A stretch of DNA of 64,000 nt from Desulfatiglandales bacterium (GCA_963666345.1 OY762721.1:1952001-2016000); one strand, 5' to 3'. Positions 6,782 to 36,275 are shown, counted from the stretch's first letter. Notes: generated by a model not told the origin, from the sequence alone. Translations and numbers: made by a program.

Positions 6782-8473
6782 TTATAAGGCACTCTCATTA
6801 TTCAATACCTGATCCTTAATCCTTTTAACATGCCCCCTGCCAAGCCCTTTTACCTCGCAACCCAACTCAAAATAACGTTTAATGGCTTCATCATTCAAAA
6901 TTCCGAAGCAGTCAATTATTGAGATAGGATTACCGGCCATTTCAACGACCTTATCAGGAGTCAAGCTTAGATAATCCTTGTGCCTGACAGCAAGCACAAC
7001 CGCATCGGCACCTTTAAGCACATCTGCCATGTTTTTATGGACAACAATTTTAGAAAGCTTCTCCTGACCCCTGAAAAACCTGGCCCATGACTTTTGCGGG
7101 GCAGGATATGTATCCTGTTTTTCAAGTTCCCACCAATGCTTGACATAAGGGTCGTGTACTACCACCTCACCGCCCATCTCGGTCAGTTTTCTTACTATCA
7201 TCTCAGAGCCACTGTAACGCGTATCACCCACGTCCTCCCTGTAGGAAACGCCCAGAACCGTTATGTTTGATGCCGCAACTATCTTTCCCATGTTACGCAG
7301 CGCGTCACGCACCAGCTGGACGACATGAAGGGAGCGGGTATCGTTTATGTCGATGGCAAGGGGGGTAATCTTGAAGATATCGTCGTCAAAGCCCATGAGC
7401 GAATTGTATGCCCATACGCCAAGCCCCCCGTCCTTGGGAAGGCAGTATCCACCGATTCCGGGACCGGGGAAAATAATGTTTGAATGGGTGGGTCGGATCT
7501 TTATGGCGTCTATGACCTTTATAAGGTCCACCCCATTTCTCTCCGAGAAAAGGCTCCATTCATTTAGAAAGGAAAGGATTGTGGCCCGATATGAATTTTC
7601 CACGATCTTGCATGTTTCACTTTCTATGGGCCGGTCAAGAACCGTTAAAGGAAATTTCTCGACATTAATCACATTTGAAAGAAACCTTGTGACACGGCTT
7701 TTTGCCTCATCATTAATGCCTGAGCATACGCGCCAGAAATCGCGAATGGAAGCGACATAGTTTTTACCGGGCATCACTCTTTCAAATGAATGGGCAAGAA
7801 GGGGCTTGGAGCCGTTCAGCCCCCTTTTTTCAAATGCCTTTTTTATAATCGGATAGGCGATATACTCGGTCGTGCCCGGTGGCACGGTCGTCTCGATGAG
7901 CACCAGACAATCAGGCCTTATCTTGTCCCCAATTATCTGGAGGCTTTCTTCAAGAGCCTCGATATCCGCATGGCCTTTTCGGACATCCCCGAGGGTCTCC
8001 TTGTGGTAGTCGCACTGCACATCCACCACCACAATGTCAGCAAGGCATAAGGCATCATATGAAAAGGAAGCTGTAAGGGTCTTTTTCTCCTTTACGCACC
8101 GTTTGATCAAGGGGGCGACCTCAGGGTCTTCGGCCTCAACAGGTGCCACACCCTTATTCAGATAGGGTATCTTCCAGTATGAACGGATTGAAGGCCTCTG
8201 CATGCCGATTACCGAATAGATGGAATTACCTGTTTCAGGGTCAACAGAGTCGGCCACAACCCCTGCCATAACGGAACCGACAAACCCAACGCCCATGACG
8301 ACAACGATCTCGCGACCCTTCTCTTTTTCCTGTTTTACAAGCTGTCTCAGGCGTTTGTTTTCATTTTCATAATCCGCCTCTGTCGGAAGGGGGAAGACCT
8401 CGCCGTTCGGAGAGGGGGACACGGGATTATCCGTGTTGTTGGAGGGGTTGGTTGTATTGGGGTCTTTAGTCAT
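6782..8473 (-). CDS. Nucleotide-sugar dehydrogenase (UDP-glucose/GDP-mannose dehydrogenase family, long form)
   Basis: GVGFVG, ETTVPPGTTE, KIVENSYR, GPGIGGYCLPKD (catalytic Cys), YREDVGDTRYS. Confidence 0.9.
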   Translation of the reverse strand: MTKDPNTTNPSNNTDNPVSPSPNGEVFPLPTEADYENENKRLRQLVKQEKEKGREIVVVMGVGFVGSVMAGVVADSVDPETGNSIYSVIGMQRPSIRSYWKIPYLNKGVAPVEAEDPEVAPLIKRCVKEKKTLTASFSYDALCLADIVVVDVQCDYHKETLGDVRKGHADIEALEESLQIIGDKIRPDCLVLIETTVPPGTTEYIAYPIIKKAFEKRGLNGSKPLLAHSFERVMPGKNYVASIRDFWRVCSGINDEAKSRVTRFLSNVINVEKFPLTVLDRPIESETCKIVENSYRATILSFLNEWSLFSERNGVDLIKVIDAIKIRPTHSNIIFPGPGIGGYCLPKDGGLGVWAYNSLMGFDDDIFKITPLAIDINDTRSLHVVQLVRDALRNMGKIVAASNITVLGVSYREDVGDTRYSGSEMIVRKLTEMGGEVVVHDPYVKHWWELEKQDTYPAPQKSWARFFRGQEKLSKIVVHKNMADVLKGADAVVLAVRHKDYLSLTPDKVVEMAGNPISIIDCFGILNDEAIKRYFELGCEVKGLGRGHVKRIKDQVLNNESAL

Positions 8474-8552
8474 TAATGGGTTCCTTTCTGATTAGGTTTA
8501 ACGGCCCACTTGTATTGTTTAAAAACTATAAAAGATAAAACAAATTTTATTT

Positions 8553-8660
8553 AGCCGCCCGTGCGCTTCGCTTACTTGATTAACGGGACAAAGAAGGATG
8601 AAAAGATTTTTGCTCTGCCGACACTGGCAGAGCAAAAGCTTCATTTGCTTCGCAAAAGGT
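8553..8660. repeat. Intergenic structured repeat, type A, copy 1
   Basis: AGCCGCCCG...CTTGA...GGATG...TTTTGCTCTGCC-gacact-GGCAGAGCAAAA-GCTTCATTTGCTTCGCAAAAGGT. Confidence 0.9.
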
Positions 8661-8774
8661 AAACAGCGGTATCAGTTTCAGGAATTGGGGCCTGCAGTTG
8701 AGAAGCCTTTGATTCAATTTTGGACCTCTCGAAGCTGGTTCCCTAATAACTAATAACAGTGTCCTTGTTTTCTT

Positions 8775-8884
8775 TGCCGCCCGTTCGTTTCACTCACTTG
8801 ATTGACGGGACAAAAAAGGATGAAAAAATATTTGCTCTGCCGATGCTGGCAGAGCAAAAGCTCCAATTTTACTTCGCAAAAGTT
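8775..8884. repeat. Structured repeat type A, copy 2 (followed by a type-B tail fragment at ~8927-8960)
   Basis: Same consensus, hairpin TTTGCTCTGCC-gatgct-GGCAGAGCAAA. Confidence 0.9.
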
Positions 8885-8972
8885 AAAGTCGGATTTTCAT
8901 TTAAGCACTTGGGAAAAGTCAAGTACTGCTACCCCAGGGAAAGCTTCCAATGCTTGCGCAGTAAAGTACATT

Positions 8973-9356
8973 TCAAATATTATCATTGCCCCTTTCGAGA
9001 ACCAGACGGCGAATAACGGCCTTTTCGCCCTTGAAGTTTACCAGAATCCCAAGGTGCATGCCTGTGGACCGCAGGTAGTTGAGGAGCTGCGCCTGGTGCG
9101 CCTTGGTCAGTTCATCCACCGCTTTCAGTTCCAGAATGACCTGGTTTTCAACTATCAAATCGGCAAAGTATTCGCCTACGATAGTCCCTTTGTAATTAAC
9201 ACTTATAGGTACCTGGGATTCAGCTTTGAGTCCGAGGTTTTGAAGTTCGAGCAGGAGGGCATTTTCGTAGACCTTTTCAAGGAAGCCTTCACCCAGTATG
9301 CGGTGGACCTCAAAGATAGCGCCGTTGATCTTGTAGGTAAGTTCTCTTGAATCCAT
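8973..9356 (-). CDS. GxxExxY protein (PD-(D/E)XK nuclease-like)
   Basis: LGEGFLEKVYENAL, ADLIVENQVILELK, AQLLNYL, GILVNF. Confidence 0.92.
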   Translation of the reverse strand: MDSRELTYKINGAIFEVHRILGEGFLEKVYENALLLELQNLGLKAESQVPISVNYKGTIVGEYFADLIVENQVILELKAVDELTKAHQAQLLNYLRSTGMHLGILVNFKGEKAVIRRLVLERGNDNI

Positions 9357-9421
9357 TATTATGGAATGTTCAGCGGCCCGTTATTATTGATTAAAAAGTT
9401 ATAAAAGACAAAAGACTGTTT

Positions 9422-9500
9422 AGCCGCCCGTTCACTTCGTTCACTTGATTAACGGGACAAGGCAGGATGTTTTTCCTCGGGCGATGCTCCCCGAGGAAAA
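9422..9500. repeat. Structured repeat type B, copy 3
   Basis: Same left arm AGCCGCCCGTTCACTTCGTTCACTTGATTAACGGGAC; hairpin TTTTCCTCGGG-cgatgctc-CCCGAGGAAAA. Confidence 0.88.
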
Positions 9501-9684
9501 GAGCCCAAGAGCAGGGCATCTTGGCAGATGAGCGGCTAGTAGAATAACCTTTTGGATGTTTCTTGTGCCAAATCCAGGCAGTGCCCCAGTTAAATACGCT
9601 TCGCTGTCCATGCGGAATTCTACCGGGCAGGCATGACGCGCTGTAAGAAACCAGGGGCATCTATTCTTGGTTGGCGGGGCATTG

Positions 9685-9939
9685 TTATTTATGGTAATGC
9701 TTTGTTATAGAAATTATTTCAATTTTATCTTCAGGCAGGCAAATAAAGATGGCTCTATATTTCTTATCCAAACGGAATGAATAAATATGCCGGTGTTTGG
9801 GTTCTAACAATTCAGTATTTAATGAAGGATGAGATGGATCATTCTCAAAAAGTTTTTTAGCCTTTTCCCATTTTTTATTAAGAGCATGTTTTTGAAGATA
9901 TTCCTTGATATCGTCTCTAAGTGGTAAAATGGAAGGCAT
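9685..9939 (-). CDS. RelE/ParE-superfamily toxin (TA pair 1)
   Basis: 84 aa, basic, NDPSHPSLNTELL...IYSFRLDKKYRAIF...IEIISITKHY. Confidence 0.7.
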   Translation of the reverse strand: MPSILPLRDDIKEYLQKHALNKKWEKAKKLFENDPSHPSLNTELLEPKHRHIYSFRLDKKYRAIFICLPEDKIEIISITKHYHK

Positions 9940-9945
9940 TTTGAT

Positions 9946-10209
9946 TTATCGATTAATAGATGATTTTTTTAAACCTTCTTCCAGATCTTTTAAGAAACCT
10001 TCTTCATACAAATCTGTTGCCGCAAACTCAGATATAATCGATTCAACTTTATCATTTTTAAAAGACTTTAATTCAATTGGTTTTCTCTCAAGTCTCCTTA
10101 GCAGCTTTTTTCGCTCTTCATCTGTGAGATTGTCGACGATTTCATAGAGTGTATCCATAGGTATTTCTATTTTCTTTGTTATTGTTTCTTTAAGAGTAAT
10201 TTGAGGCAT
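9946..10209 (-). CDS. Putative antitoxin (TA pair 1)
   Basis: 87 aa, 6 bp upstream of toxin, acidic C-terminus, GGAGG RBS, TTGACA -35 at 10278-10283 on minus strand. Confidence 0.6.
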   Translation of the reverse strand: MPQITLKETITKKIEIPMDTLYEIVDNLTDEERKKLLRRLERKPIELKSFKNDKVESIISEFAATDLYEEGFLKDLEEGLKKSSINR

Positions 10210-10430
10210 ATTGCACCTCCCTAAAATGGGGATTTTAAAAAGACAATACCTTAGAGATTATCATTTATTAATCTAAGTGTCAAAATCCCAAGGAAAAATA
10301 TCGTAACTCTCTTTAATAATTTGTAGTAGCTAAGATATGATCTGACACATACCCTTTCTCGCCTGTCACGCTTTTTTCGTGTTTCCCGTTTCATTATAAC
10401 CAATAACCGATAACCTTGCTCTTGTTTCTT

Positions 10431-10537
10431 TGCCGCCCGTTCGAATTGCTCGCTTGACAAATCAGGATAAAAACGGATGTTTTTTTACTCTGCCGATGCT
10501 GGCAGAGTAAAAGCTCCAATTTTGCTTCGCAAAAGGT
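10431..10537. repeat. Structured repeat type A, copy 4
   Basis: Hairpin TTTTACTCTGCC-gatgct-GGCAGAGTAAAA. Confidence 0.9.
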
Positions 10538-10693
10538 GAATGTGGCTTTTGTTTTCAGAAGTTGAGATCTGAAGATCAAGTGCCTTCTATTCCTCACAGG
10601 CACTGCAGAGAACAAGGACGAAAAACATGTGATTTCTCTGACAGTCTTTCCCTTGGAACCTTGCCCCCTGGGACCCTTGAACCCTGCTTTTTT

Positions 10694-10765
10694 AACCGCC
10701 CGCTTCGCTTGACAAAGAAGGATAAAGACAGGATGTTTTTTTGCTCTGCCGATGCCGGCAGAGCA
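10694..10765. repeat. Structured repeat type A, copy 5 (right-truncated)
   Basis: AACCGCCCGCTTCGCTTGACAAA...TGCTCTGCCGATGCCGGCAGAGCA. Confidence 0.85.
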
Positions 10766-10843
10766 CACGGCCATCTCTGCGCAGCATAGACGCCTGGGGA
10801 AAGAATCCTATATGATATAGGGTCAAATTTGCTCCTGAACCAT

Positions 10844-11245
10844 CTAAAGATCATGCTCCGATAGTTGTACCAATCCCGGGATAAACTTGAAATGTTTGTC
10901 CTTTGAATAAATTTTGTATCCGTGCTGAAAAGCAACTGAAGCAATCCATATATCGTTTGTGGGAATAGGGGTTCCAGCTTCCCTCAAATTATGCAATATT
11001 GAAGCATAAAAATCAGCACTAACCTCATCAATGAAGTGAACGACTACTCTTGGAGAATCAAGAAAAACATTAAGCTCTTCCCTGTTTTTGGTTTCATGGC
11101 GACCGCCTTTAAAACCTGAAAAAAGCTCCCCGATGCTAATGACGGAAAAACCTATCAGATCAATTTTTCTCAACGTATCGACAACATTCACTTCACCCTT
11201 CATGGCGAGTGAGTATATATTCGTGTCGATCAGAACTTTTTTCAT
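10844..11245 (-). CDS. vapC: VapC PIN-domain toxin (TA pair 2)
   Basis: VLIDTNIY, SIGEL, PIPTNDIWIA, SKDKHF. Confidence 0.92.
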   Translation of the reverse strand: MKKVLIDTNIYSLAMKGEVNVVDTLRKIDLIGFSVISIGELFSGFKGGRHETKNREELNVFLDSPRVVVHFIDEVSADFYASILHNLREAGTPIPTNDIWIASVAFQHGYKIYSKDKHFKFIPGLVQLSEHDL

Positions 11246-11502
11246 TTCCAGAGCTCCTGGTCAACTCGCCGCTCTTGGCTAATCTTCGCATGGATTTTTT
11301 CAAATTCATCATTGCTCCAACTTCCAAATAATTCATCTAGGTCATTATATTCACGCGTATATCTCTTTTCCTTTTTGAGTCCAAGGCCTTCTTTGATTAT
11401 TTCAAGGGTCAGCTGATTAACACTCTTACCTTTTTCAGCAGCAGTCTGCTTGAGCTTCTCAGCAACCTCGGCCTCAATGCCTCTAATGGTGACCGCCTTC
11501 AT
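11242..11502 (-). CDS. Ribbon-helix-helix antitoxin (VapB/FitA-like, TA pair 2)
   Basis: MKAVTIRGIE...LKQTAAEKGKSVNQL; ATGA overlap with vapC. Confidence 0.85.
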   Translation of the reverse strand: MKAVTIRGIEAEVAEKLKQTAAEKGKSVNQLTLEIIKEGLGLKKEKRYTREYNDLDELFGSWSNDEFEKIHAKISQERRVDQELWK

Positions 11503-11530
11503 AAGGGCCTCCTGATATTTCCATCAGTTT

Positions 11531-11578
11531 ATGATTGCATTTTGTAATCATTTTATGACATCACATGGTTTTTGTCAA
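11531..11578 (-). promoter_or_regulatory. Putative TA pair 2 promoter with operator palindrome
   Basis: Imperfect palindrome ATGATTGCA-ttt-TGTAATCAT (11531-11551); TTGACA on minus strand at 11573-11578. Confidence 0.5.
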
Positions 11579-11673
11579 GTACTTCGGGAAACTCGAGGGG
11601 TTGATAAAAACATGAAAAGAATCTTTAACCGCCCAGTTGGTTTTGGAACCAACAAAGACCAAAAACATTGTTT

Positions 11674-11780
11674 AACCGCCCGTTCACTGCGTTCGCTTGA
11701 CAATACAGGATAAAGACAAGATGTTTTTTTGCTCTGCCGATGCTGGCAGAGCAAACGCTCCATTTTGCTACGCAAAAGGT
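11674..11780. repeat. Structured repeat type A, copy 6
   Basis: AACCGCCCGTTCACTGCGTTCGCTTGACAA...GCTCTGCCGATGCTGGCAGAGC...CGCAAAAGGT. Confidence 0.9.
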
Positions 11781-11894
11781 GAAGGTTGGTTTTCATTTAA
11801 CCACCAATTATTTTATTGGCTGTAGGGACAATAAAATAATAAAGATCTTCCGTGCCCTTAAATTTTTAGATAGTGAGGGAGTGCCTCTGGGCAA

Positions 11895-12191
11895 TTATTT
11901 CTTTTTGAGTTCCCTTAGCTGTTCACCGAATAGTTGGTAAATATCTTTGCGATGGCCTACATAGTGAATCTGTAAGACCTTCTCGTCTTCCAGTATTTTG
12001 TAAATGATTCTATATCGTTTTGCACGCAGGGAAAGATAGCCGGAAAGTTCTTTTTCAAGGAATTTGCCTGAATAGGGCTTTTCCTGCATCTGTTCTATTT
12101 TAGACTTTATAACCGGTTTTAAGTGGGGATGTAGTTTTTTGATCTGATTACGAGAGGTTTCAGAGTAAAGCAACCTGAACTTCCGGGCCAT
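11895..12191 (-). CDS. RelE/ParE-family toxin (TA pair 3)
   Basis: PYSGKFLEKELSGYLSLRAKRYRIIY...VGHRKDIY; TAATG coupling to the antitoxin. Confidence 0.88.
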   Translation of the reverse strand: MARKFRLLYSETSRNQIKKLHPHLKPVIKSKIEQMQEKPYSGKFLEKELSGYLSLRAKRYRIIYKILEDEKVLQIHYVGHRKDIYQLFGEQLRELKKK

Positions 12192-12460
12192 TACTCCGCC
12201 CATACATCTTTATGCGTGTAGGCTTTACCGGCCTTGAAATCTTTCTCGGATGCATCCAGGGCCTTAAGAATGCCCGAATCGGAAAGGATCTCGATTGTCT
12301 CTAGTAGCCCGACGTAACGGTCCGGTGTTAACATAACACCAACGGCTACCCCGTTTTTCGTCACCGTAATAGTAGAGTCCTCATCCGTCATATCCTTGAT
12401 GATATCAAGAAAATTCTTTTTTACAGTTGTTACCGGTATAATTTTTTGAATATCATCCAT
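12191..12460 (-). CDS. Phd/YefM antitoxin (TA pair 3)
   Basis: IPVTTVKKNF...ITVTKNGVAVGVML...LLETIEILSD. Confidence 0.88.
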   Translation of the reverse strand: MDDIQKIIPVTTVKKNFLDIIKDMTDEDSTITVTKNGVAVGVMLTPDRYVGLLETIEILSDSGILKALDASEKDFKAGKAYTHKDVWAE

Positions 12461-12606
12461 TTAGAAATTTCCCCTATGAATTATAATGACCATAATAATT
12501 TCAAGTTCTTATAAAGTCAATATGGAAGGGCATTGAGAATATTAGGAAATCAGGTCTAATTTTTGGTTCGATCGGATATCAGAAAACAGAAGAACAAATT
12601 TTAATT

Positions 12607-12704
12607 AACCGCCCGTTTCGCTTGACAACACAGGATAAGGACAGGATGTTTTTTTACTCTGCCGACCCTGGCAGAGCAAAAGCTCCATTTGCTTCGCAAA
12701 GGTT
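12607..12704. repeat. Structured repeat type A, copy 7
   Basis: Consensus match; hairpin TACTCTGCC-gaccct-GGCAGAGCA. Confidence 0.9.
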
Positions 12705-12799
12705 GAGGTTGGGTTTTCATTTAAGCGCCAGGGGAAATTCAATCATCAATTACTTCATCAGCTGCTGAAGCAACAAAAAGAAAAGAAGAATTGTTGTTT

Positions 12800-12872
12800 A
12801 ACCGCCCGTTCGCGTTGCTCACTTGATTAACGGGACGGGGCAGGATGTTTTTCCTCGGGCGATGTTCCCCCG
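12800..12872. repeat. Structured repeat type B, copy 8 (truncated)
   Basis: AACCGCCCGTTCGCGTTGCTCACTTGATTAACGGGAC...TTTTCCTCGGGCGATGTTCCCC. Confidence 0.85.
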
Positions 12873-13000
12873 GTCTCCACTTATGCATGGCACTAAAAAT
12901 GGGTAATTTACAGTTCTTACATTGGCAGGGAATACAATTATTTCATGGAAAAGGTTTTATTATGGTGCAATTTGCCTCGGGCGCCAAATTCTTCAGTCAC

Positions 13001-14482
13001 CTAATCACCCAGTAGCAGGAGTAGGATGGACGACAGGACGCCGTTATTCAAAGCCACTCTTTTGACACCCATGCCAATGCACTGTGAGCCCCACTTTTCA
13101 CTGTCATTAAATTCGCTGTTCACAAAAATAAATGTTTGGCCATCTTCACTCAGAATCCCTGCACCGCTTTCTTCATCTGGAGTGCCCGGATCAAATGTGA
13201 TGGTGATAGTGCCGTCGGATGAAATCGAATAAATGCCGCTCTCAGTGCCACTACCGGAAGTAAATGTTGTTGAAAATGTGTTGTTGCCTTCAAGATCGTC
13301 CCCAATCTGCCTGTTCAATTCATCCTCTTTCGTACAGCTGCCGGTAAAAGTCCCGTCTGACATAAAAGTGAACGTCTCTTTCATGATCAAAACCTTGTCA
13401 TTGACACCCCATGAACCCACAGCACCACCATGAAATGCGCTCTCAAATTCATGAATTTCATATACCGTGTCATCGGGAAAATACTGCGAGAAACCACTCC
13501 CCTTTTTGACACCCATGCCAATGCACTGTGAGCCCCACTTTTCACTGTCATTAAATTCGCTGTTCACAAAAATAAATGTTTGGCCATCTTCACTCAGAAT
13601 CCCTGCACCGCTTTCTTCATCTGGAGTGCCCGGATCAAATGTGATGGTGATAGTGCCGTCGGATGAAATCGAATAAATGCCGCTCTCAGTGCCACTACCG
13701 GAAGTAAATGTTGTTGAAAATGTGTTGTTGCCTTCAAGATCGTCCCCAATCTGCCTGTTCAATTCATCCTCTTTCGTACAGCTGCCGGTAAAAGTCCCGT
13801 CTGACATAAAAGTGAACGTCTCTTTCATGATCAAAACCTTGTCATTGACACCCCATGAACCCACAGCACCACCATGAAATGCGCTCTCAAATTCATGAAT
13901 TTCATATACCGTGTCATCGGGAAAATACTGCGAGAAACCACTCCCCTTTTTGACACCCATACCAATGCACAGTGAGCCCCACTTTTCACTGTCACTAAAT
14001 TCGCTGTTCACAAAAATAAATGTTTGGCCATCTTCACTCAGAATCCCTGCACCGCTTTCTTCATCTGGAGTGCCCGGATCAAATGTGATGGTGATAGTGC
14101 CGTCGGATGAAATCGAATAAATGCCGCTCTCAGTGCCACTACCGGAAGTAAATGTTGTTGAAAATGTGTTGTTGCCTTCAGAATCATCCCCAATCTGCCT
14201 ATTCAATTCATCCTCTTTCGTACAGCTGCCGGTAAAAGTCCCGTCTGACATAAAAGTGAACGTCTCTTTCATGATCAAAACCTGGTCATTGGCACCCCAT
14301 GCACCCTCAGCACCCCCATGAAATCCGCTCTCAAATTCATGAATTTCATATACCGTGTCGTCGGGAAAATACCTGCTGAATGCCAATGAGTATGAGGCTG
14401 GAATTTCAAATCCAATAATAAGCAGCAACGCAAAGCTCAGTATAAAAAGTCTTTTCAATAGAAAGTTTTTAGTATTATCCAA
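13001..14482 (-). CDS. Secreted protein with three near-identical 148-aa domains and hydrophobic C-terminal tail
   Basis: Signal peptide; 444-bp DNA period (13233/13677/14121); ends GVLSSILLLLLGD; GGAG RBS before TTG start. Confidence 0.8.
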   Translation of the reverse strand: MDNTKNFLLKRLFILSFALLLIIGFEIPASYSLAFSRYFPDDTVYEIHEFESGFHGGAEGAWGANDQVLIMKETFTFMSDGTFTGSCTKEDELNRQIGDDSEGNNTFSTTFTSGSGTESGIYSISSDGTITITFDPGTPDEESGAGILSEDGQTFIFVNSEFSDSEKWGSLCIGMGVKKGSGFSQYFPDDTVYEIHEFESAFHGGAVGSWGVNDKVLIMKETFTFMSDGTFTGSCTKEDELNRQIGDDLEGNNTFSTTFTSGSGTESGIYSISSDGTITITFDPGTPDEESGAGILSEDGQTFIFVNSEFNDSEKWGSQCIGMGVKKGSGFSQYFPDDTVYEIHEFESAFHGGAVGSWGVNDKVLIMKETFTFMSDGTFTGSCTKEDELNRQIGDDLEGNNTFSTTFTSGSGTESGIYSISSDGTITITFDPGTPDEESGAGILSEDGQTFIFVNSEFNDSEKWGSQCIGMGVKRVALNNGVLSSILLLLLGD

Positions 14483-14662
14483 CCTTAGCTCCTTTCTTTC
14501 ATATTGTATTTAATCCAACAGAATAATCACAATCCATTTTTTTTATAACTGATAGGTCAAATAAATTATTGAGGAACATTATGAAATAATTTTATCCAAT
14601 ATTTAATCATAGCAAGAAATTCGATATTAGAACTTAGCTTTTCAATTTTCATATTTTTTAGA

Positions 14663-15652
14663 TCAAGTATTATAACCTTCCGGATGTTTTTTGTGCCATC
14701 CCCAGGCGGTTTCAATAATAGTCTCAAGGTCTGCAAACCGGGGCTTCCACCCCAGCTCCTTAATTGCTTTATCTCCCGAACCAATAAGCGTAGCAGGGTC
14801 CCCTGGTCTTCGGCTTACGACTTTTGACGGAATCATTTCACCCGTAACATTTTGGCTTACATCGATTATTTCCTTAACCGTGTAACCAACACCATTCCCC
14901 AAGTTGTACTTTCCTCCGGAAAGCCCATTTAAAAGCCCTTCCAATGCAAGCAGATGTGCTGAGGCCAGGTCATATATATGGATGTAGTCGCGGACGCATG
15001 TGCCGTCTCTTGTGGGGTAGTCATCGCCGAAAACATTGACCTGCTTACGTTGCCCCAAGGCCGTTTTGAGGACCAATGGAATAATATGAGTCTCGGGGTC
15101 GTGATCTTCTCCTATTTCACCGTCAGGGTCTGCTCCTGCTGCATTAAAATAGCGCAGAGAAATGTAATTTAATCCGTAGGCTTCTGAAAAATCTTTCAAA
15201 ACAGCCTCTACCATGAGCTTGCTTCGTCCATAAGGGTTAACAGGCACGCACTGGTGGGTTTCAAAGATTGGGTTATCTAACGGCTCACCATATACCGCTG
15301 CCGTAGATGAAAAAATGAAATTCTTCACACCATGATCAATCATGCCTTTAAGAAGTGTGACTGTAGAGCCCACATTATTTCTATAGTACAGAACCGGATC
15401 TGTGACTGATTCTCCAACATTGATATAGGCAGCGAAGTGCATAACAGCACTGATGCGGTTATCGGTAAATAATTGAGAAAGGAGTTCTTTGTCATCCATA
15501 TTCCCCTTAACCAAGCTGCCCCATTTCACGGCCTGAGCGTGACCCCGGCTTAGATCGTCAAGCACAATAGGCAAATAGCCGCTTTCTGACAGCTTCTTGC
15601 ACATGTGAGAGCCGATATAGCCGGCCCCGCCTACAACCAGGATTTTTTTCAT
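14663..15652 (-). CDS. galE: UDP-glucose 4-epimerase
   Basis: GGAGYIGSH, HFAAYINVGES, NPYGRSK, LRYFNAAGA, DGTCVRDYIH. Confidence 0.93.
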   Translation of the reverse strand: MKKILVVGGAGYIGSHMCKKLSESGYLPIVLDDLSRGHAQAVKWGSLVKGNMDDKELLSQLFTDNRISAVMHFAAYINVGESVTDPVLYYRNNVGSTVTLLKGMIDHGVKNFIFSSTAAVYGEPLDNPIFETHQCVPVNPYGRSKLMVEAVLKDFSEAYGLNYISLRYFNAAGADPDGEIGEDHDPETHIIPLVLKTALGQRKQVNVFGDDYPTRDGTCVRDYIHIYDLASAHLLALEGLLNGLSGGKYNLGNGVGYTVKEIIDVSQNVTGEMIPSKVVSRRPGDPATLIGSGDKAIKELGWKPRFADLETIIETAWGWHKKHPEGYNT

Positions 15653-15748
15653 ACCTTATAATTCGTTTTTTAATTAAGCATCCTAGACAGCAACTTCACC
15701 ATCTCGATTTCCAAACAAGTCTATAAATTAAAGATCATATGTAGGAAT

Positions 15749-16969
15749 TCAGCTGCGCCTCCAGAATTTGACTCCCTTTACCAGTTCATTATATCTGTCA
15801 GGGTCCTGCGTTTTTACCTTGAAGACGAATTCTTTTATAAAGGCAAGAAATATGGCTGTGAAAAACCCCACTACAGTGGAAAGGATCACTATCATCTTTT
15901 TTTTAGGAGCAGACCTTGTGTCAGGAGGAACTGCTTTATCAAGCACCTGGATTGTGTTCATATCCTTGGCCTCTTCGATTTTGGCCATCTCGTATTGACT
16001 GGTAAGGAGTTCGAATACCTGCTCCTGGATCTTTGCCTCACGCATCAGCCTTGCCAGCCTCATGCCGAGGTCAGGAAGCTCCTTAAAGGGGATATAGAAG
16101 TTGTCGGCATTTTTTTCAGGGTTTCCTGATTCTATCTTTGCAAGTTGTTTCCGGAGCTCCTCTATCTTTGATTTGAGCATTATAGCTTCATTCTGTTTTT
16201 CAGTACCGAACTTCTTTAAGACTTCAAACTCGGTCTGAGCGGCGATGATCTCTCCCTTTAATGTGGCTGCACCTTCAATGGAGGCCTTTGCCTGCTCATT
16301 AATGGATACAAGATTGTATTTCTCCTGAAACGCCTGGAGACCGGTTTCTGCATTTATTAAATCCTTTTTGGCCTTTTCAAGCCTTTCTTCAAGAAACACC
16401 CTCTTACGCTGGCCTTCAGTAACAAGCACGGTCCTGTTTATCTGATCCAGAGCCTCAACATAGATATTGGCCATGGCTGCAGCCCTTTTCGGGTCCTCTT
16501 CCTCTACTGACACACTTATGATCCCTGTGTCCTTTGAAACATTTATTTTAGTGATTTCTGAAAGCTTATTGTAGACAGGGGAAATGTATTCCGCTTCCCA
16601 CAGTTTTTTGAGATCGAATTTATTGATCAGGACATCGGCCACTGAGCGGCTTTTCATGATCCCGACATAAACATCCGAGCTTGACTGTCCCCCCCCCAAC
16701 AGCCCTGATGCAAGCCCTCCGAAGGCACCTCCCGCCTGAGAAAGGAAAGAGGAAATTCCAGATTTTTGCTGTTGTGGCGGAAGGATTCGAGCAGTTGCAG
16801 TAAATTTCTCAGGCAGATAGAGGCTGTAGCAGACAGAGAAGACTATCGCGATCAAGGTAATCCAGAAGATGAGCCATTTCCTTTTCAGGAGGACGAGTAA
16901 AAGGTCAAGGAGGTTTATTTCGTCTTCCATGCACTCAGGCGGGATGTTATTTGGATCTGTGGGGTTCAT
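15749..16969 (-). CDS. Wzz/Wzc-like polysaccharide co-polymerase (no kinase domain)
   Basis: EDEINLLDLL N-terminus, two TM segments, coiled coil, IQVLDKAVPP..SAPKK. Confidence 0.88.
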   Translation of the reverse strand: MNPTDPNNIPPECMEDEINLLDLLLVLLKRKWLIFWITLIAIVFSVCYSLYLPEKFTATARILPPQQQKSGISSFLSQAGGAFGGLASGLLGGGQSSSDVYVGIMKSRSVADVLINKFDLKKLWEAEYISPVYNKLSEITKINVSKDTGIISVSVEEEDPKRAAAMANIYVEALDQINRTVLVTEGQRKRVFLEERLEKAKKDLINAETGLQAFQEKYNLVSINEQAKASIEGAATLKGEIIAAQTEFEVLKKFGTEKQNEAIMLKSKIEELRKQLAKIESGNPEKNADNFYIPFKELPDLGMRLARLMREAKIQEQVFELLTSQYEMAKIEEAKDMNTIQVLDKAVPPDTRSAPKKKMIVILSTVVGFFTAIFLAFIKEFVFKVKTQDPDRYNELVKGVKFWRRS

Positions 16970-17049
16970 AACCGGACCTCATGATTGGATTTTTTGTTTT
17001 ATTTTTAAACGCCTGTGAGCATTGAGAGAAGAAGAATTCTTGTTTTTTT

Positions 17050-17154
17050 AACCGCCCGTTCACTGCGTTTACTTGATTAAAGGGACAAAAGCAGGATGTT
17101 TTTTTACTCTGCCGATGTTGGCAGAGCAAAAGCTTCATTTGCTTCGCAAAAGGT
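17050..17154. repeat. Structured repeat type A, copy 9
   Basis: Consensus match. Confidence 0.9.
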
Positions 17155-17374
17155 GAGCAGTAGTTTCAATTTCAGTAGTTGAGGTCTAAAGTCCAAATGC
17201 CTTTTGTTTCTCACAGAGACCACAGAGGGCACAGAGAAAAAACATGCTGTTTCTTCGACAGCGGTTCACTTGGCCCCTTGAAACTGGGAACCCGCTGCGA
17301 AGCTGTGGGACTGAGCGGAGCGTAAGCGGAGCAAAGAATCCTCGACCCCTGGAAACCTTGGACCCTGATTTCTT

Positions 17375-17470
17375 AACCGCCCGTTCACTGCGTTCACTTG
17401 ATTAGCTGGACAGGGCAGGATGGTTTTCCTCGGGCGATGCTCCCCTGGGGAAAGCTTTCAATGCTTGAGC
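17375..17470. repeat. Structured repeat type B, copy 10
   Basis: AACCGCCCGTTCACTGCGTTCACTTGATT...TTTTCCTCGGGCGATGCTCCCCTGGGGAAAG. Confidence 0.88.
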
Positions 17471-17577
17471 ATTATTTTATAGCGGTGTACATAAAACTTC
17501 TTCTGTAACGTTGATCAAACGATGGCAAAGCTTGAGGCGATGTGTTGATTAAACCGATAAAAGACAAAAGAGTGTTT

Positions 17578-17678
17578 GACCGCCCGCTTCGCTTGACAAA
17601 ACAGGATGGAAACGGATGTGACCTCTTTTTGCTCTGCCGATGCTGGCAGAGCAAAAGCTCCAATTCCTGCGTAAAGGT
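17578..17678. repeat. Structured repeat type A, copy 11
   Basis: Consensus match, hairpin TTTTGCTCTGCC-gatgct-GGCAGAGCAAAA. Confidence 0.9.
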
Positions 17679-17716
17679 GTAAGGTCAACTTTCTTTTCGA
17701 GTCTTACTGGAACGGG

Positions 17717-18022
17717 TTAGGTTTTTTGATTTTTTGAAAGAATGCGGAATGTTTCTTCATATATGATTCTTCTAGGGCCTATGGCGACAATTTCTATCTG
17801 CCGCCTTTTTGGGCGGATACGGTATATGATTCGATATCTTTTAACGCGATAACTTCTCAGACCTTTAAGCTCATCCTTGAGGGCCTTTCCACCGTATGGA
17901 TTCCCGATTATGTTTTTCAAACCGGATCGGATGTGCAATTTGATCATTGGATGAAGCTTCTTTAAAACAGAAGCAATATCGTCCGGGACCCTCGGGACAA
18001 ATTTACCTTCGTCCGTGATCAT
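17717..18022 (-). CDS. RelE/ParE-family toxin (TA pair 4)
   Basis: NPYGGKALKDELKGLRSYRVKRYRIIY...IGPRRIIY. Confidence 0.88.
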   Translation of the reverse strand: MITDEGKFVPRVPDDIASVLKKLHPMIKLHIRSGLKNIIGNPYGGKALKDELKGLRSYRVKRYRIIYRIRPKRRQIEIVAIGPRRIIYEETFRILSKNQKT

Positions 18023-18285
18023 GATTCGGGCAACAGTTCCTCCAGGCCGTATAGGGCCGCTCTGCCTTTTTTCAGTGATTCCAGACCACTTTCAATTTCC
18101 TCCATAAAATTGGAGTCGAATCGAATCTTGATGGTCTCCCGCCAGCTTTCAAATTCATCCGGGCTCACCATTACAGCAACAGGTCGGCCGTTTTTTGTAA
18201 TGATTACCTCTTCATCGGTCTGCTTTACGGAATCGACCAATGCGCTCAGTTTCATCTTGGCTTCCGACACGGACATAGTATTCAT
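18019..18285 (-). CDS. Phd/YefM antitoxin (TA pair 4)
   Basis: MSVSEAKMKLSALVD...VIITKNGRPVAVMVS; ATGA overlap. Confidence 0.92.
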   Translation of the reverse strand: MNTMSVSEAKMKLSALVDSVKQTDEEVIITKNGRPVAVMVSPDEFESWRETIKIRFDSNFMEEIESGLESLKKGRAALYGLEELLPES

Positions 18286-18305
18286 AATATAGAACCTTAT
18301 ATAGG

Positions 18306-18354
18306 TTGACTTAAATTATAGTCAATATATAAGCTTTTTTAAAATGACTGTCAA
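18306..18354 (-). promoter_or_regulatory. Putative TA pair 4 promoter/operator
   Basis: Palindrome TTGACT-taaattat-AGTCAA (18306-18325); TTGACA on minus strand at 18349-18354. Confidence 0.5.
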
Positions 18355-18419
18355 GAATACCGAGGCGAGTAACCGCCCTGTTGGTTCTGAAATCAGCACA
18401 GAAAAAAAGAATTTTTGTT

Positions 18420-18527
18420 AGCCGCCCGTTCACTGCGTTCACTTGACAAAACAGGATAAAAACGGATGAAAAGATTTTTACTCTGCCGACATGGCAGAGT
18501 AAAAGCTTCGTTTGCTTCGCAAAGGGT
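18420..18527. repeat. Structured repeat type A, copy 12
   Basis: Consensus match; hairpin TTTTACTCTGCC-gacat-GGCAGAGTAAAA. Confidence 0.9.
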
Positions 18528-18674
18528 GGCTGGTTGTTCCTTTTCCAACTCCCAAAAAAAATCGATCACCATTCACCGGTTACTGGGATAACAAAAAAAA
18601 TAAAAGATCTTCTATGTGATTAGCTTCTTTCCCTTGGCTCCTCGACTCCTGGAACCCTTGGACCCTGTCTTATT

Positions 18675-18712
18675 AACCACCCGCTTCGCTGGCAAAACAA
18701 GATATAAACGAG
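18675..18712. repeat. Structured repeat, left-arm fragment (copy 13)
   Basis: AACCACCCGCTTCGCTGGCAAAACAAGATATAAACG resembles the left arm. Confidence 0.6.
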
Positions 18713-18730
18713 TGGTTACACCCCATAATA

Positions 18731-19354
18731 TCACCTGGAGTTTGGAAGCATAAGGTGGCCCTTCTCCACCAGGTAGCCGAGTATTTTCATGGCCCCCTCC
18801 TGGGGAGTCAATTCTGCTGTCTTTATAACAAGCTCGGGATTAACAGGTGCCTCATAAGGGTCATCGATTCCGGTAAAGCCCTTTATCTCTCCTTTGCGTG
18901 CCTTCTTGTACAAACCCTTTGGGTCCCTCTTTTCACATACGTCAATAGGGGCATCTATAAATATTTCCATAAAAAACAGTCCGGCTTCATCATGTATCTT
19001 TCTTGCTATTTCACGGTCCTTTGCATATGGTGAAATGAAGCTGGTCATGGTTATGAAGCCTGCGTCTGCGAAAAGTTTAGCGACCTCTCCTATACGGCGT
19101 ATATTTTCCTCACGGTCTTCAGCTGAAAAACCCAGGTTCTTGTTCAGTCCATGTCTGACATTATCTCCGTCAAGGACATATGCAAGTCTGTCTCTTTGAA
19201 CAAGGGCATGCTCAAGGGTAAATGCCAGGGTGCTTTTGCCTGATGCACTAAGGCCAGTCATCCAGATAGTGCAGCCCCTTTGTTGGAGCAGATTCTCACG
19301 TAATTCACGGTTTACATGTCCCTCATGCCAAATGATATTATTCGCTATCTGCAT
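18731..19354 (-). CDS. cysC: Adenylyl-sulfate kinase
   Basis: WMTGLSASGKSTLA, LDGDNVRHGL, RDPKGLYKKAR, FTGIDDPYEAP. Confidence 0.95.
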   Translation of the reverse strand: MQIANNIIWHEGHVNRELRENLLQQRGCTIWMTGLSASGKSTLAFTLEHALVQRDRLAYVLDGDNVRHGLNKNLGFSAEDREENIRRIGEVAKLFADAGFITMTSFISPYAKDREIARKIHDEAGLFFMEIFIDAPIDVCEKRDPKGLYKKARKGEIKGFTGIDDPYEAPVNPELVIKTAELTPQEGAMKILGYLVEKGHLMLPNSR

Positions 19355-19390
19355 TGATATTCACCTATTAAATTTTGCTAGAAAAGGTTT

Positions 19391-19486
19391 AACCTTTCGC
19401 TTTGCTTGACAAAACAGGATAAAAACGGATGTTTTTTACTCTGCCGACACTGGCATAGCAAAAGCTTCATTTGCTACTCAAAAGGT
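19391..19486. repeat. Structured repeat type A, copy 14 (abuts the stop codon of the upstream gene)
   Basis: ...CTTGACAAAACAGGATAAAAACGGATG...ACTCTGCCGACACTGGCATAGC...CAAAAGGT. Confidence 0.85.
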
Positions 19487-21081
19487 TACTGCAGGGAAGG
19501 ATATTTCTTGCCGCAGGCAGGGCAGGTCTTGTCTTTATTCAGGGTCTCCCCGCATTCGCATACCCAGCCTTTATGGGTTGCCGGATTTCCGACCACAAGG
19601 GCATGATCGGGTACGTCCCTTGTTACCACGGCACCTGCGCCGATAAGAGAGTAACTGCCGATTGTAACCCCGCACACTACCGTGCAGTTGGCACCAAGGG
19701 TTGCCCCCTTCTTTACAAGGGTAGGCCTTGCCTGATCCATTTTACTAATCTCAGCCCTCGGATTGTACACATTGGTAAACACCATGCTGGGCCCGCAGAA
19801 CACCCCGTCTTCAAGGGTAACGCCCTTATACACGGATACGTTATTCTGTATCTTGCACCTGTTTCCTATTACCGCTTCAGGGCCTATGACCACATTCTGC
19901 CCTATATTGCACTGTCTGCCGACGCATGAGCCTGAAAGAAGATGAGAAAAATGCCATATCTTTGTTCCATCACCTATCTTGCAGTCCTGGTCAATAATAG
20001 AAGAGGGGTGCGCATAAAAGCCTTTTTCATCTTTATCGGCTGCCTGAATTTTCGCCTCTCTGCCCGCAGCCTCCACTTCTATCCTTCTGCCTCCATCATC
20101 GAGCGACATTTGAGAGCGGTTGAGCACCCTCAGGACCCTGAGGCCCTCTATCCCGTCTGTTACAGGGATCTTCCCGTTTGTGATGCAATCGATAAAATGT
20201 TCACACTCAAGCCTTAATGGTTCCGCCTCCGCCATTTCAACCCTTTCAGGCATCCCCTTTTCAGGCACCGGAATATTTTTCTCCCAGTTTATCTTGTGCG
20301 GATAGAGAAGCAGTTTGTCCTTCCAGGGTTGGGTGTCGTCAAAAACCGCCATTTTTTTGTCCCCCACAACTACCAGTTTCTGCTCTTTAAAGGGGTGAAG
20401 CCAGGAGACAAATATGTGCGCCTTCAGGCCTGAGGGAAACTCAAGGTGCGTGGTGGTGACATCCGCGATCTTCTTGTGAAGGTAGTTTCCGCCTGTGGCT
20501 GAAACCGCGTCAGGCGTTTCTCCTGCAAGGGAAAGGATCATGGATATGTCATGGGGTGCAAAAGACCAGAGGATGTTTTCTTCCCGCCTGATCTTTCCCA
20601 GGTTAAGCCTGTTTGAATATATATAGTTGATCCGGCCAAGCTCGCCACCTGAAGCAAGCTCCTTGAGTCTTATAAAGGCTGGATGGTGCTGCAGCAGGTG
20701 CCCTACCATCAGGACAAGGCCCTTATCTTCGGCAATAGAGATAAGTTCTTCGGCCGCATTTTCATCAAGCACAAGCGGTTTTTCAACATACACATGCCTT
20801 CCAGCCAGAAGCGCCTCCCTTGCCAGGTTATAATGGGTCTCGGCAGGGGTGGCAATAACCACTCCTTTTATATCTTCCCTTGAGATCACTTCATTTAAGG
20901 CGATGCAGGTATCTATGTCAGGATAGTTTTTCCTGAACTGGGCCAGGGTCTCTTCGTTTCTGTCACAGATAAGCCTCAGGGAACCGAGTTGATAGTAATT
21001 TCTTACAAGATTTTTCCCCCAGTAGCCGCTTCCAATAACTGCGATGCCCGGTCTTTTTTTATCTGCCGTGCCTTTGTCCAA
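19486..21081 (-). CDS. Gfo/Idh/MocA oxidoreductase fused to hexapeptide N-acetyltransferase (WbpB-WbpD-like)
   Basis: [13 protein letters not shown] in N-half; [45 protein letters not shown] in C-half. Confidence 0.88.
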
Positions 21082-35781: not shown

Positions 35782-36172
35782 GATTCAAGTAGATGAGCTG
35801 CAGTTGCCTATTTGCAGGAAACAGGCTACGGCACCGGCACTCTTTCCTCCGACCTTCTCTATGCTTTATGGAAAAGTGCCCGCATCCTTGGGCTTTTGTG
35901 AATGTTACCTAAGCTGATAGGGCAGCGAGGAAGAAAAGCCCTGTCTGCGGCCACTGCATATGCCTGTGGTATTTTTTTGTGAGATAAGGCCGGAAGGAAA
36001 GAGCCCCGGCACCTCCACTTGTGCCTTAACAGGCAAGGCTTCTTAATTGCGGAGTTTCCGTTTATCCCTTACAACTAAGGACCCTGCACGTTTAAACGGC
36101 TGGCACTGCTAAGCCTTCAAAAAATAAGTGCATGGCTTTAAATCTCAACTGCTGAAAATAAAACCGGCATTT

Positions 36173-36263: not shown

Positions 36264-36275
36264 AAAAAAAGGATC

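Follow-up and report, generated by a model that had tools for sequence, protein, structure and literature searches.

Integron arrays and CALINs (clusters of attC sites lacking integrases) consist of small co-oriented units, many of them self-promoted toxin–antitoxin (TA) pairs, bounded by structured repeats of ~100–150 nt, and the order and content of the units vary between close strains. REP, BIME and REPIN families, which are served by RAYTs and carry a GTAG-type head, are intergenic hairpin repeats that occur singly, in twos and threes, as inverted doublets and as mosaics, in genomes with Y1 (IS200-like) genes that have flanking repeats of their own. JUMPstart/ops elements share a conserved motif rich in G, GGCGGT..., which the coding strand carries shortly before the start of many polysaccharide genes; the ops core is GGCGGTAG, on the non-template strand of the leader. 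Bacterial MITEs (Correia, ERIC, RUP and Chunjie), as described in parts of two reviews (PMC3184786, PMC10969869), are non-coding and 100–300 nt long, fold strongly, include truncated and mosaic copies, and lie inside operons without breaking them. Apart from the service by RAYTs, the GTAG-type head and the ops core, the locus described here has these features in common with the known systems. It belongs to a stretch of 64,000 nt from Desulfatiglandales bacterium (GCA_963666345.1 OY762721.1:1952001-2016000), referred to here as the window; its genome is G000.

A repeat search of window positions 7500–20500 gave 13 direct-repeat families, of which 11 (D2–D12) are fragments of a single element. 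Its copies were detected with an nhmmer profile from 14 seed copies and with a covariance model, R1, from 22 copies. Thirteen plus-strand copies within 8541–19523 score 66–133 bits with R1, values that are partly by construction because the same copies served to build the profile and R1; as an independent check, the pattern ACCGCCCGYT..CTTGA..GGA occurs 8 times in the window, where 100 shuffles give an expectation of 0.00. An earlier sequence-only reading had described 14 co-oriented copies of 100–110 bp, and 18 copies overall. Both counts are confirmed, 13 array copies being found by R1, partial copy 18667–18807 by nhmmer, and four more on the minus strand elsewhere in the window; the element is real as well, albeit somewhat longer, at ~135–150 nt (about 140). 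The full and partial copies are as follows.

8541–8691, plus strand: repeat copy with long 5′ module and the main hairpin type GCTCTGCC/GGCAGAGC (R1 125.2 bits)
8763–8915, plus strand: repeat copy (R1 124.2 bits)
9410–9566, plus strand: repeat copy, compensated hairpin variant CCTCGGG/CCCGAGG (R1 82.6 bits)
10419–10568, plus strand: repeat copy (R1 129.9 bits)
10682–10825, plus strand: repeat copy, 3′ tail divergent, its end lying 19 nt from the stop codon of the PIN gene (R1 86.2 bits)
11624–11660, plus strand: partial copy, only 5′ box and small hairpin, forming the edge of the RHH/PIN block (from sequence; joint 11624|17600)
11662–11811, plus strand: repeat copy (R1 127.8 bits)
12595–12735, plus strand: repeat copy, short 5′ module (R1 132.9 bits)
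12788–12935, plus strand: repeat copy, CCTCGGG hairpin type, 3′ arm decayed (R1 66.4 bits)
17038–17185, plus strand: repeat copy (R1 122.2 bits)
17363–17518, plus strand: repeat copy, CCTCGGG hairpin type (R1 84.5 bits)
17566–17710, plus strand: repeat copy, 98–100% identical to a second strain (see below) from 17600 on, with a different 5′ module (R1 123.5 bits)
18361–18385, plus strand: partial copy consisting of the 5′ box, at the Phd/ParE-1 block edge (from sequence; block end 18358)
18408–18558, plus strand: repeat copy (R1 127.6 bits)
18667–18807, plus strand: partial copy, 5′ module only (nhmmer only, E 5.5e-12)
19379–19523, plus strand: repeat copy, 3′ end overlapping the GFO/IDH–hexapeptide stop codon (R1 111.5 bits)
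36142–36275, minus strand: single copy between a Kdo-transferase gene and a gene of unknown function (R1 125.4 bits)
42803–42946, minus strand: single copy, the spacer being only 36 nt in the relative G004 (R1 127.4 bits)
48252–48387, minus strand: single copy between peptidase-MA and NamZ genes (R1 107.6 bits)
59390–59535, minus strand: single copy with tolQ-like and mobB genes on either side, co-oriented with them (R1 101.1 bits)

Read on the plus strand, the element starts with the box AACCGCCCG, followed by a variable stretch, which forms a hairpin in some relatives, and the box CTTGA(Y); in the middle GGAT occurs once or twice, followed by a T-run and an 11–12-bp hairpin with a loop starting CGA, after which come another, small hairpin and a tail of loose sequence. 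In a set of 43 copies, drawn from three genera and a metagenome contig, CCGCCCG (37–42 of 43), CTTGA (40–43), GGA (41–43) and the CGA of the loop (41) are near-invariant. In the same set the two hairpins are kept, with 87.3% paired cells versus 68.5 ± 1.1 in shuffles (0 of 500 reach the observed value) and 45–65% in slid controls; both sides change in 15 of 17 pairs, and the small hairpin was absent from the model behind this alignment. Copies combine their 5′ module, GGAT region, hairpin type and tail in mosaic fashion, and those of G000 are only 60–90% identical to one another. The search of Rfam proposed earlier returned no family for the repeat: there were no matches at gathering score across the 64 kb, and at E ≤ 1 over 8400–12950 the single match was to an unrelated pan motif (E 0.9) outside the repeats. 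The repeats of ~140 nt form a family that is not catalogued; they are non-coding, structured and mosaic.

Judged from sequence, such an element might be a cis-acting RNA of operon spacers that stabilises, processes or insulates the polycistronic mRNA, or acts in anti-termination before each gene start as JUMPstart/ops does, its spread then reflecting selection for expression after insertions; we regard this as distinctly unlikely. The covarying hairpins and conserved linkers would suit an RNA, and read-through would be expected, as no hairpin is directly followed by a T-run on either strand (weak terminator-like sites, on both strands, were flagged in only 3 copies). On the gene-sense strand every copy has GGGCGGTTAAAC at its end, which lies 30–215 nt before the next start codon and has GGCGGT in common with the ops core; just six of the eight ops bases match, however, the copies carrying GGCGGTTA, GGCGGCTA or GGCGGCAA. 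A second NusG-domain gene is present in the genome, but 1 Mb away and with no copy nearby. Orientation relative to the flanking genes is the same for 20 of 25 informative copies, but counted by locus it is 8 versus 3, which is not significant, and half of the copies point the other way in the inverted doublets of the genomes G018 and G026. Wobble pairs number 18 on one strand and 19 on the other, with no G–U excess on either, a balance that fits DNA-level structure better than RNA.

Between and beside the array copies lie the following genes, for which the earlier calls are right according to Pfam, the pair at 9685–10206 excepted, and all of which are on the minus strand, as had been stated.

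19486–21078, minus strand: GFO/IDH plus hexapeptide fusion, wbpB/D (Pfam)
18731–19351, minus strand: APS kinase, cysC, with repeats on both sides (PF01583)
18019–18282 and 17717–18019, minus strand: Phd/ParE pair 1 (Pfam), promoter-like site 18343–18315
15749–16966, minus strand: Wzz (Pfam)
14663–15649, minus strand: NAD-epimerase (Pfam)
13001–14479, minus strand: repeat protein, 492 aa, with 3 × 444-bp tandem repeats (family D1)
12191–12457 and 11895–12200, minus strand: Phd/ParE pair 2 (PF02604, PF05016), promoter-like site 12520–12492
11242–11499 and 10844–11242, minus strand: RHH antitoxin and PIN toxin (PF22513, PF01850), own promoter-like site 11578–11550 (TTGACA-17-TAAAAT)
9946–10206 and 9685–9936, minus strand: small ORFs, putatively forming a TA pair, with a weak HigB-like match only (E 0.0011, below cut-off)
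8973–9353, minus strand: small PD-(D/E)XK_3 (GxxExxY-type) gene (PF13366, E 8.1e-42)
6782–8470, minus strand: UDP-sugar dehydrogenase (Pfam)

The three TA pairs Phd/ParE-1, Phd/ParE-2 and RHH/PIN each have their own strong promoter-like site. Co-oriented, TA-rich cargo of this kind is found in chromosomal integrons, and the copies could be degenerate attC sites, forming a CALIN left by, or served in trans by, a genomic IntI, although we consider this highly improbable. The absence of IntI noted earlier is true of the window and false of the genome, in which an intact integron integrase is encoded at 1,359,039–1,359,980 (472 bits versus a cut-off of 265), and integrons occur widely in the order, in 21 of 41 genomes. 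The gene-sense 3′ end is GTT in 8 of 14 copies and the full GTTRRRY in 3 of 14 (19387 read by eye). An integron array adjoins intI, attI and Pc; this IntI, however, is ~600 kb from the array and adjoins a different, GC-rich repeat of 150–166 nt, and in none of the four R1-positive genomes with a located IntI (G000, G018, G026 and G033) does a copy share a contig stretch with it. Of the inverted core sites R″ (RYYYAAC) and R′ (GTTRRRY) that mark the two ends of attC, inspection gave no RYYYAAC box complementary to the GTT end. The RNAalifold consensus fold contains the internal hairpin alone, and single-strand DNA folds of 10 copies leave the ends unpaired in nine; the exception, 9410–9566, pairs both ends (TAGCCGC...GCGGCTA) without AAC/GTT. 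An identity as attC fails on the fold, which would be one imperfect hairpin pairing R″/R′ and L″/L′, and the earlier alternative that the copies are canonical attC sites fails with it.

Scanning G000 with the covariance model gave 26 copies, of which 22 lie within 117 kb, or 2.8% of the genome, an uneven spread. This ~117-kb repeat-rich stretch is a cell-envelope region, and the copies are densest in the spacers of the polysaccharide operon; single copies also occur between ordinary genes. The family is patchy, being present in 3 of 40 relatives (with G000, 4 of 41 genomes) and in 6 of 150 genomes of an order sample (G026 is in both counts). Another relative, G140, has five matches, and the four whose surroundings were examined, within 55 kb of one contig, are all between ordinary genes (neighbours PBP1, TRAP transporter, ATP synthase a and PLP enzyme). 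In two genera, represented by G018 and G026, the element forms tail-to-tail inverted doublets (L035, L032, L038 and L039) whose terminal inverted repeats are T/GAAACCGCCCG ... CGGGCGGTTTC, whereas in G000 one copy has pairing ends and the others do not. The single copies, those of G140 and the inverted doublets weigh against the view of the repeat as part of a dedicated gene-capture system. In both G000 and G026, which belong to different families, repeats lie in polysaccharide loci with TA pairs adjoining, a neighbourhood that hints at more than random spread. One filled and empty site can be compared: a spacer of ~280 nt holds copy 42803–42946 here, and in G004 the same pair of genes stands 36 nt apart, a single case in which the exact ends are unreadable because G004 is at genus distance.

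A second, close strain is seen in a metagenome contig (L160), in independent assemblies of runs X3, X4 and X5 from three other studies, and as a minor strain in X1. Its order is wbpB/D, other sequence of 693–725 nt, Phd/ParE-1, RHH/PIN and Phd/ParE-2, versus wbpB/D, cysC, Phd/ParE-1, wzz block, Phd/ParE-2 and RHH/PIN in G000. The three shared TA units are 90–98% identical (RHH/PIN 94.5%, Phd/ParE-2 90%), and block identities of 90 to 98.4% between the strains make a mosaic pattern. In the other strain cysC is missing from the G000-type position and located elsewhere, and the wzz–epimerase–repeat-protein block is not between the TA units, so that the units between repeats behave as separable modules, as first proposed. 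Joints were expected at the repeats, and 5 of 7 block edges are within 20 nt of a copy or partial box, close to chance expectation because repeats fill most intergenic DNA of the array; the other two are at stop codons or 66–71 nt from a copy, and the edges have no element coordinate or fixed crossover point in common. At the cleanest joint (17600), in copy 17566–17710, everything 3′ of the CTTGAY box is 97–100% identical to the other strain, the 5′ modules differ, and only about 15 nt are shared at the joint itself.

These rearrangements bear on a dedicated, integrase-independent cassette system, as the sequence-only reading had it, in which a putative enzyme, perhaps a HUH/Y1 recombinase specific for single strands or a tyrosine recombinase, would use the folded element as its recombination site, cutting out and inserting units that each join a gene or TA pair to part of a repeat; we regard such a system as unlikely. 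Conserved single-stranded boxes beside covarying stems resemble a site recognized by structure plus sequence, the wobble-pair balance and the joint at 17600 would suit it, and the swap of two TA units between strains needs excision and re-entry, beyond deletion. Repeat-delimited TA units also recur in the genome: in a second array (1,542,776–1,546,959), TA and defence units are set apart by a 23-nt motif that is also found, as inverted repeats, on both sides of a Y1 transposase gene. Yet no enzyme has been connected with the element, the contigs show no circular junction, the block edges fall at differing element coordinates, the single copies and the four in G140 are without cargo, and the IS21 and upstream cysC strain differences have no repeat at their edges. 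The separable units, the uneven distribution and the self-promoted TA pairs support the earlier proposal in part, whereas a dedicated gene-capture system is not supported, with no recombinase, circular junction or fixed crossover found.

With moderate confidence, we favour a structured repeat similar to a MITE or REPIN, with copies that act as joints for recombination. The family looks like a dispersed non-autonomous repeat of the MITE or REP-doublet kind and not an integron site. There is direct support for the existence of the family, for its conserved structure and its distribution, and for a difference between strains whose joints fall in or next to repeats. The element would spread by itself into intergenic spacers, piling up locally; copies have accumulated in the cell-envelope region, most densely in the polysaccharide-operon spacers, and the same operon would have taken in some small genes as well as self-promoted TA pairs. 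As its spacers are almost entirely similar repeats, recombination between copies, probably with no dedicated enzyme, could cut, move and re-join the intervening units, leaving close strains that differ in unit order and content; a unit may, for instance, be excised as a circle that re-enters at another copy. Several points run counter to this explanation. The identity among G000 copies makes them a poor substrate for ordinary homologous recombination, the short stretch shared at joint 17600 fits a site-specific or microhomology event better, and the filled and empty comparison is one case at genus distance. No autonomous element with the family's ends and no linked transposase was found, the only transposase gene near any copy being IS110, 440 nt from a partial copy. 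The inspected doublets have no flanking direct repeats that would indicate target-site duplication, and TTTAACC at both ends of 11662–11811 is part of the conserved element. The two Y1 (IS200-like) genes of G000, at 1.930 and 2.027 Mb, are beside or inside the repeat-rich stretch, but are flanked by other repeats (one gene by a 29-nt inverted repeat unlike the element, the other by 33-nt perfect hairpins), and the element, in 4 of 41 genomes, does not track the Y1 family, in 31 of 41.

Set against the known systems, the element differs from JUMPstart/ops in being repeated within the operon, not once in a leader, in matching the ops core incompletely, and in lying also beside unrelated genes, with no RfaH-type gene nearby. 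Unlike integron arrays and CALINs, it does not fold into the attC hairpin, in which the R and L boxes pair, its GTT is inconstant, it is not beside IntI, which has its own repeat, and its copies also stand singly between ordinary genes or as inverted doublets. From MITEs it is set apart by terminal inverted repeats that are seen only in the doublets of other genera and one G000 copy, and no direct-repeat target duplication, nor a parent IS next to the copies, was found. Unlike REPs, it is without a GTAG-type head and flanks neither Y1 gene; it is four times longer, and its ~26 copies are gathered in one region instead of numbering in the hundreds.

The repeat array is real and stands well above chance. 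In G000, a single-contig genome of 4.16 Mb, a repeat search returns 13 direct-repeat families at window 8.5–19.5 kb, 11 of which are overlapping pieces of one element. A profile was made from 14 aligned copies and then a covariance model, R1, from 22 full-length G000 copies; R1 places 13 copies on the plus strand at 8541–19523 (66–133 bits) and nhmmer adds a partial copy at 18667–18807, in agreement with the 14 co-oriented copies, some partial, of the sequence-only reading. Scores of the array copies are partly circular, because the same copies fed the models; as an independent check, a short box pattern matches eight times in the window against 0.00 expected from shuffles. The copies do belong to one element, but at about 135–150 nt it is somewhat longer than the 100–110 bp first proposed. 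R1 also places four window copies on the minus strand (36142, 42803, 48252 and 59390). All cargo genes share one strand, as had been read, namely the minus strand, and Pfam bears out the identities assigned to them except for the pair at 9685–10206, which gives a weak HigB-like match only.

Cargo units of the array (window positions)
9685–10206, minus strand, gene pair with weak HigB-like match
10844–11499, minus strand, RHH/PIN toxin–antitoxin (TA) unit
11895–12457, minus strand, Phd/ParE-2 TA unit
13001–16966, minus strand, wzz, epimerase and repeat-protein genes (wzz block)
17717–18282, minus strand, Phd/ParE-1 TA unit
18731–19351, minus strand, cysC (APS kinase)

Parts of the element, in plus-strand order
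1. Box AACCGCCCG
2. Variable stretch, which G000 has in a short or a long form; in several other-genus copies it is a clean hairpin unrelated in sequence
3. Box CTTGA(Y)
4. GGAT motif, once or twice, about 11 nt apart
5. T-run
6. Hairpin of 11–12 bp, loop starting CGA
7. AAAG
8. Small hairpin, TTTGC-TTC-GCAAA in G000; GCTGC-TTC-GCAGC or other sequences elsewhere
9. Loose tail

The two hairpins are conserved as structures. Across 43 copies (from G000, the relatives G018 and G026, and L160, a metagenome contig of a sister strain), 87.3% of cells are paired, against 68.5 ± 1.1 in shuffles, with none of 500 shuffles reaching the observed value; slid controls give 45–65%, and 15 of the 17 hairpin pairs change on both sides, while the boxes hardly vary. 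The main hairpin guided the alignment and the small one lies outside the model, so that covariation of the latter is an independent result. Rfam holds nothing resembling the element. A sigma-54 or sigma-70 promoter inside it was rejected, as the TGGCA motif is gone from compensated hairpin variants and promoter-like sites (23 overall) are not above shuffles (19.1 ± 4.8); a small peptide was rejected because compensatory stem changes break the reading frame. Replacing the variable stretch after the 5′ box in two copies (window 48383–48501 and L160 320–430) is an insertion of about 115 nt with inverted repeats of its own, CCCGGTTGAAT...ATTCAACGGGA; the same insert sits at unrelated loci in the two strains.

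That the element acts at the RNA level is quite unlikely. Wobble pairs are equally frequent on both strands (18 vs 19), and the data therefore favour neither strand, nor DNA over RNA, as the folded form; a link to the genome's NusG paralogue is unsupported. Once two rows affected by a spurious ORF are corrected, orientation to the flanking genes is alike in 20 of 25 informative copies; by locus the split is 8 vs 3, which is not significant.

In all, R1 detects 26 copies in the G000 genome, 22 of them between 1,960,541 and 2,077,358, or 2.8% of its length; three are at 553–554 kb around another ParE pair, and one is at 1.545 Mb. The copies are thus not evenly dense, as a generic REP or MITE was expected to be, but cargo-free copies do exist. 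Among 40 relatives, all of other genera, three carry the element (G018 with 11 copies, G026 with 11 and G033 with one), and an even sample of the order gives matches under strict filters in 6 of 150 other genomes, G026 being counted in both samples. Plasmids and phages yield no match; with a loose pattern on genome contigs, none of the 80 loci among the matches listed holds the element, the 17 inspected being chance. In G026, which belongs to another family, the copies occupy a polysaccharide locus (Wzy, glycosyltransferases, sulfotransferases, DegT, sugar transferase, Wzz and flippase) and adjoin DUF2281–PIN, MazF, ParE and NTase–HEPN units and a 23S-IVS four-helix-bundle gene. Ordinary genes flank all four copies inspected, out of five matches, in a further genome (G140), those four lying within 55 kb. 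The spacer holding copy 42803–42946 is about 280 nt in G000 vs 36 nt between the same two genes in G004, a single pair of filled and empty sites at genus distance.

The lack of an integrase was among the features said to set the array apart from an integron; this lack holds within the window but not for the genome, where an intact integron integrase (IntI; 472 bits, cut-off 265) lies at 1,359,039, about 600 kb away. It adjoins a different, GC-rich repeat of 150–166 nt, four copies of which bound other ORFs. Within this region (1,351,352–1,359,980; L009 6352–14981), the four copies are 95–98% identical, each folds into a closed branched structure ending GTTA, and the ORFs they bound are on the minus strand, one exceeding 1250 aa; another ORF about as large is found farther from IntI. 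Degenerate attC sites, as in a CALIN, are a highly improbable identity for the window's element: its consensus fold is an internal hairpin only, its ends pair in 1 of 10 copies in single-strand DNA folds without AAC/GTT cores, and its gene-sense 3′ end has GTT in 8 of 14 copies, not invariantly, as had been noticed, with the full GTTRRRY in 3 of 14. IntI is present in all four element-bearing genomes of the search in G000 and 40 relatives, which means little since 21 of the 41 have one, and no copy lies beside it in any of the four. These fold and core-site tests speak against canonical attC sites.

Public sequencing runs contain DNA nearly identical to the window, and another arrangement occurs in contigs of three marine-sediment studies (X3, X4 and X5) and in a minor strain of X1. 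L160, a JGI metagenome contig, gives this arrangement as sequence.

Gene order in the other strain (identity to G000)
1. wbpB/D, the GFO/IDH–hexapeptide fusion (94%)
2. Other sequence, 693–725 nt long, carrying a small RHH gene in place of the cysC and two repeats of G000
3. Phd/ParE-1 (98.4%; 0–6 differences in run contigs)
4. RHH/PIN (94.5%)
5. Phd/ParE-2 (90%)

Compared with G000, two TA units are in swapped order, and the wzz block is not between TA units, a 90% wzz relative being present somewhere in those samples. Upstream of wbpB/D, with no repeats around, the other strain has a cysC of 74% identity (nucleotide level, over a 155-nt aligning stretch; L160 5563–6174 vs window 18731–19351); the APS-kinase gene of G000 is downstream, between repeats, so the two differ in place within the same operon. 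The comparison with the window used contigs; joints with a side shorter than 35 were set aside as cross-mapping between repeats, and an apparent rearrangement joining 12829 to 10718 was rejected as a mosaic copy.

Five of the seven inner block edges (10844, 11624–45, 17600, 18358 and 19492) are no more than 20 nt from a copy or partial box, and the other two (11882 and 12529) are 66–71 nt from a copy. The cleanest joint is 17600: from its GGAT motif on, hairpins and ParE-1 unit included, the strains are 97–100% identical, the 5′ modules differing (short in G000, long in the other strain). Counted with 20 nt on either side, repeats account for about two thirds of the array's non-coding DNA, and by chance an edge in a spacer would therefore be close to one about as often; the edges share no single element coordinate. 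No repeat borders two further strain differences, IS21 (in G000 only) and the upstream cysC. Shuffling at repeat boundaries, as first claimed, agrees with the differing order and the five near edges, but the near-chance rate and the two repeat-free differences call for caution. A breakpoint scan among G000 copies has 2 informative pairs only, because the copies are too diverged. The IS21 element (istA/istB) is at window 23103–25335, and L160 joins 22997 directly to 25442.

Two side features lie in the same stretch. At window 17214–17747 contig depth is 255–711 against about 20–70 around in all four runs, with many loose contig ends at 17269–17342; the spacer module here, marked by CACAGAG repeats and a periodicity of GGNCCCTTG, is part of a far more abundant repeat common to many organisms in those samples. 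Within a 492-aa ORF (13001–14479) matching no Pfam family are three 444-bp tandem units (13060–14247), 98–100% identical, with low contig cover in the likely source run.

It is rather unlikely that the element serves an unrecognised cassette system, one working without an integron integrase, as its folded and strand-specific site of recombination. Such a system would carry self-promoted TA pairs and individual sugar-pathway genes into and out of the surface-polysaccharide operons of marine-sediment bacteria. With the break immediately 3′ of the invariant CTTGAY box, each unit would take its hairpin part from one copy and its box part from the copy that follows. Consistent with it are conserved boxes beside covarying stems, the swapped unit order, a joint located where shared sequence is minimal, the recurrence of repeat, TA and polysaccharide genes in two families, and a second G000 array in which a 23-nt motif that also flanks a Y1 transposase gene separates TA/defence units; against it, no enzyme is linked to the element, some copies carry no cargo, and no excision product appears in the contigs compared with the window. 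The gene-capture or shuffling system first proposed is partly supported: modular shuffling is observed, but a capture system is unsupported.

The 23-nt motif has 17 genomic copies, in an array at 1,542,776–1,546,959 (L168 4776–8959) and 12 further places. Five co-oriented copies separate Phd–ParE, HTH–NTase, Gp49–HTH, ORF6N and Fic/AlbA units in this second repeat-delimited TA/defence array, and three copies of the motif are fused to the 140-nt element. Perfect 29-nt inverted copies flank a 338-aa Y1_Tnp gene with a DnaA_C-like part (2,026,868–2,027,956; L163 10868–11956), inside the repeat-rich region. Several copies of homologues of this gene occur in each of 31 of 41 related genomes. A link between a Y1 transposase and the element itself was rejected.

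The explanation we prefer, at about even probability, is a dispersed, structured, mosaic repeat whose copies recombine and so reshuffle operon units. The element would spread by itself and accumulate locally, and may have come to occupy the spacers of a plastic polysaccharide operon, where self-promoted TA pairs also gather (three antitoxin genes are preceded by promoter-like sites with 10–11 of 12 matches); recombination between copies would then reorder the units. Few regions of bacterial genomes vary as much as surface-polysaccharide loci, and except in well-studied pathogens little is known of how they are re-assorted. In the present locus, whose small units vary between co-occurring strains, the seams are marked by a structurally conserved repeat, and one element, known joints and public-metagenome variants form a testable handle on ordinary repeat-driven recombination vs a new site-specific system. 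The element also represents a repeat family with clear covariation that Rfam lacks, and in G000 at least two unrelated repeat families habitually flank TA pairs.

Literature on GxxExxY, on toxin–antitoxin, polysaccharide, intergenic repeat and cassette, and on Chunjie, MITE and Geobacter yielded no account of such an element; Chunjie is described in a review as disrupting a phosphate-uptake operon (PMC10969869). The element is a repeat family not previously described, of a general kind already known. A second Y1_Tnp gene (312 aa; 1,930,151–1,931,247; L175 1152–2248), with near-perfect hairpins of 33–38 nt on both sides and an adjoining HicB–MazF pair, has the classic look of REP/RAYT. Many copies of the element in G018 and G026 form tail-to-tail doublets, the outer ends being inverted repeats of the AACCGCCCG box, and these have the same look as a MITE or REP doublet.
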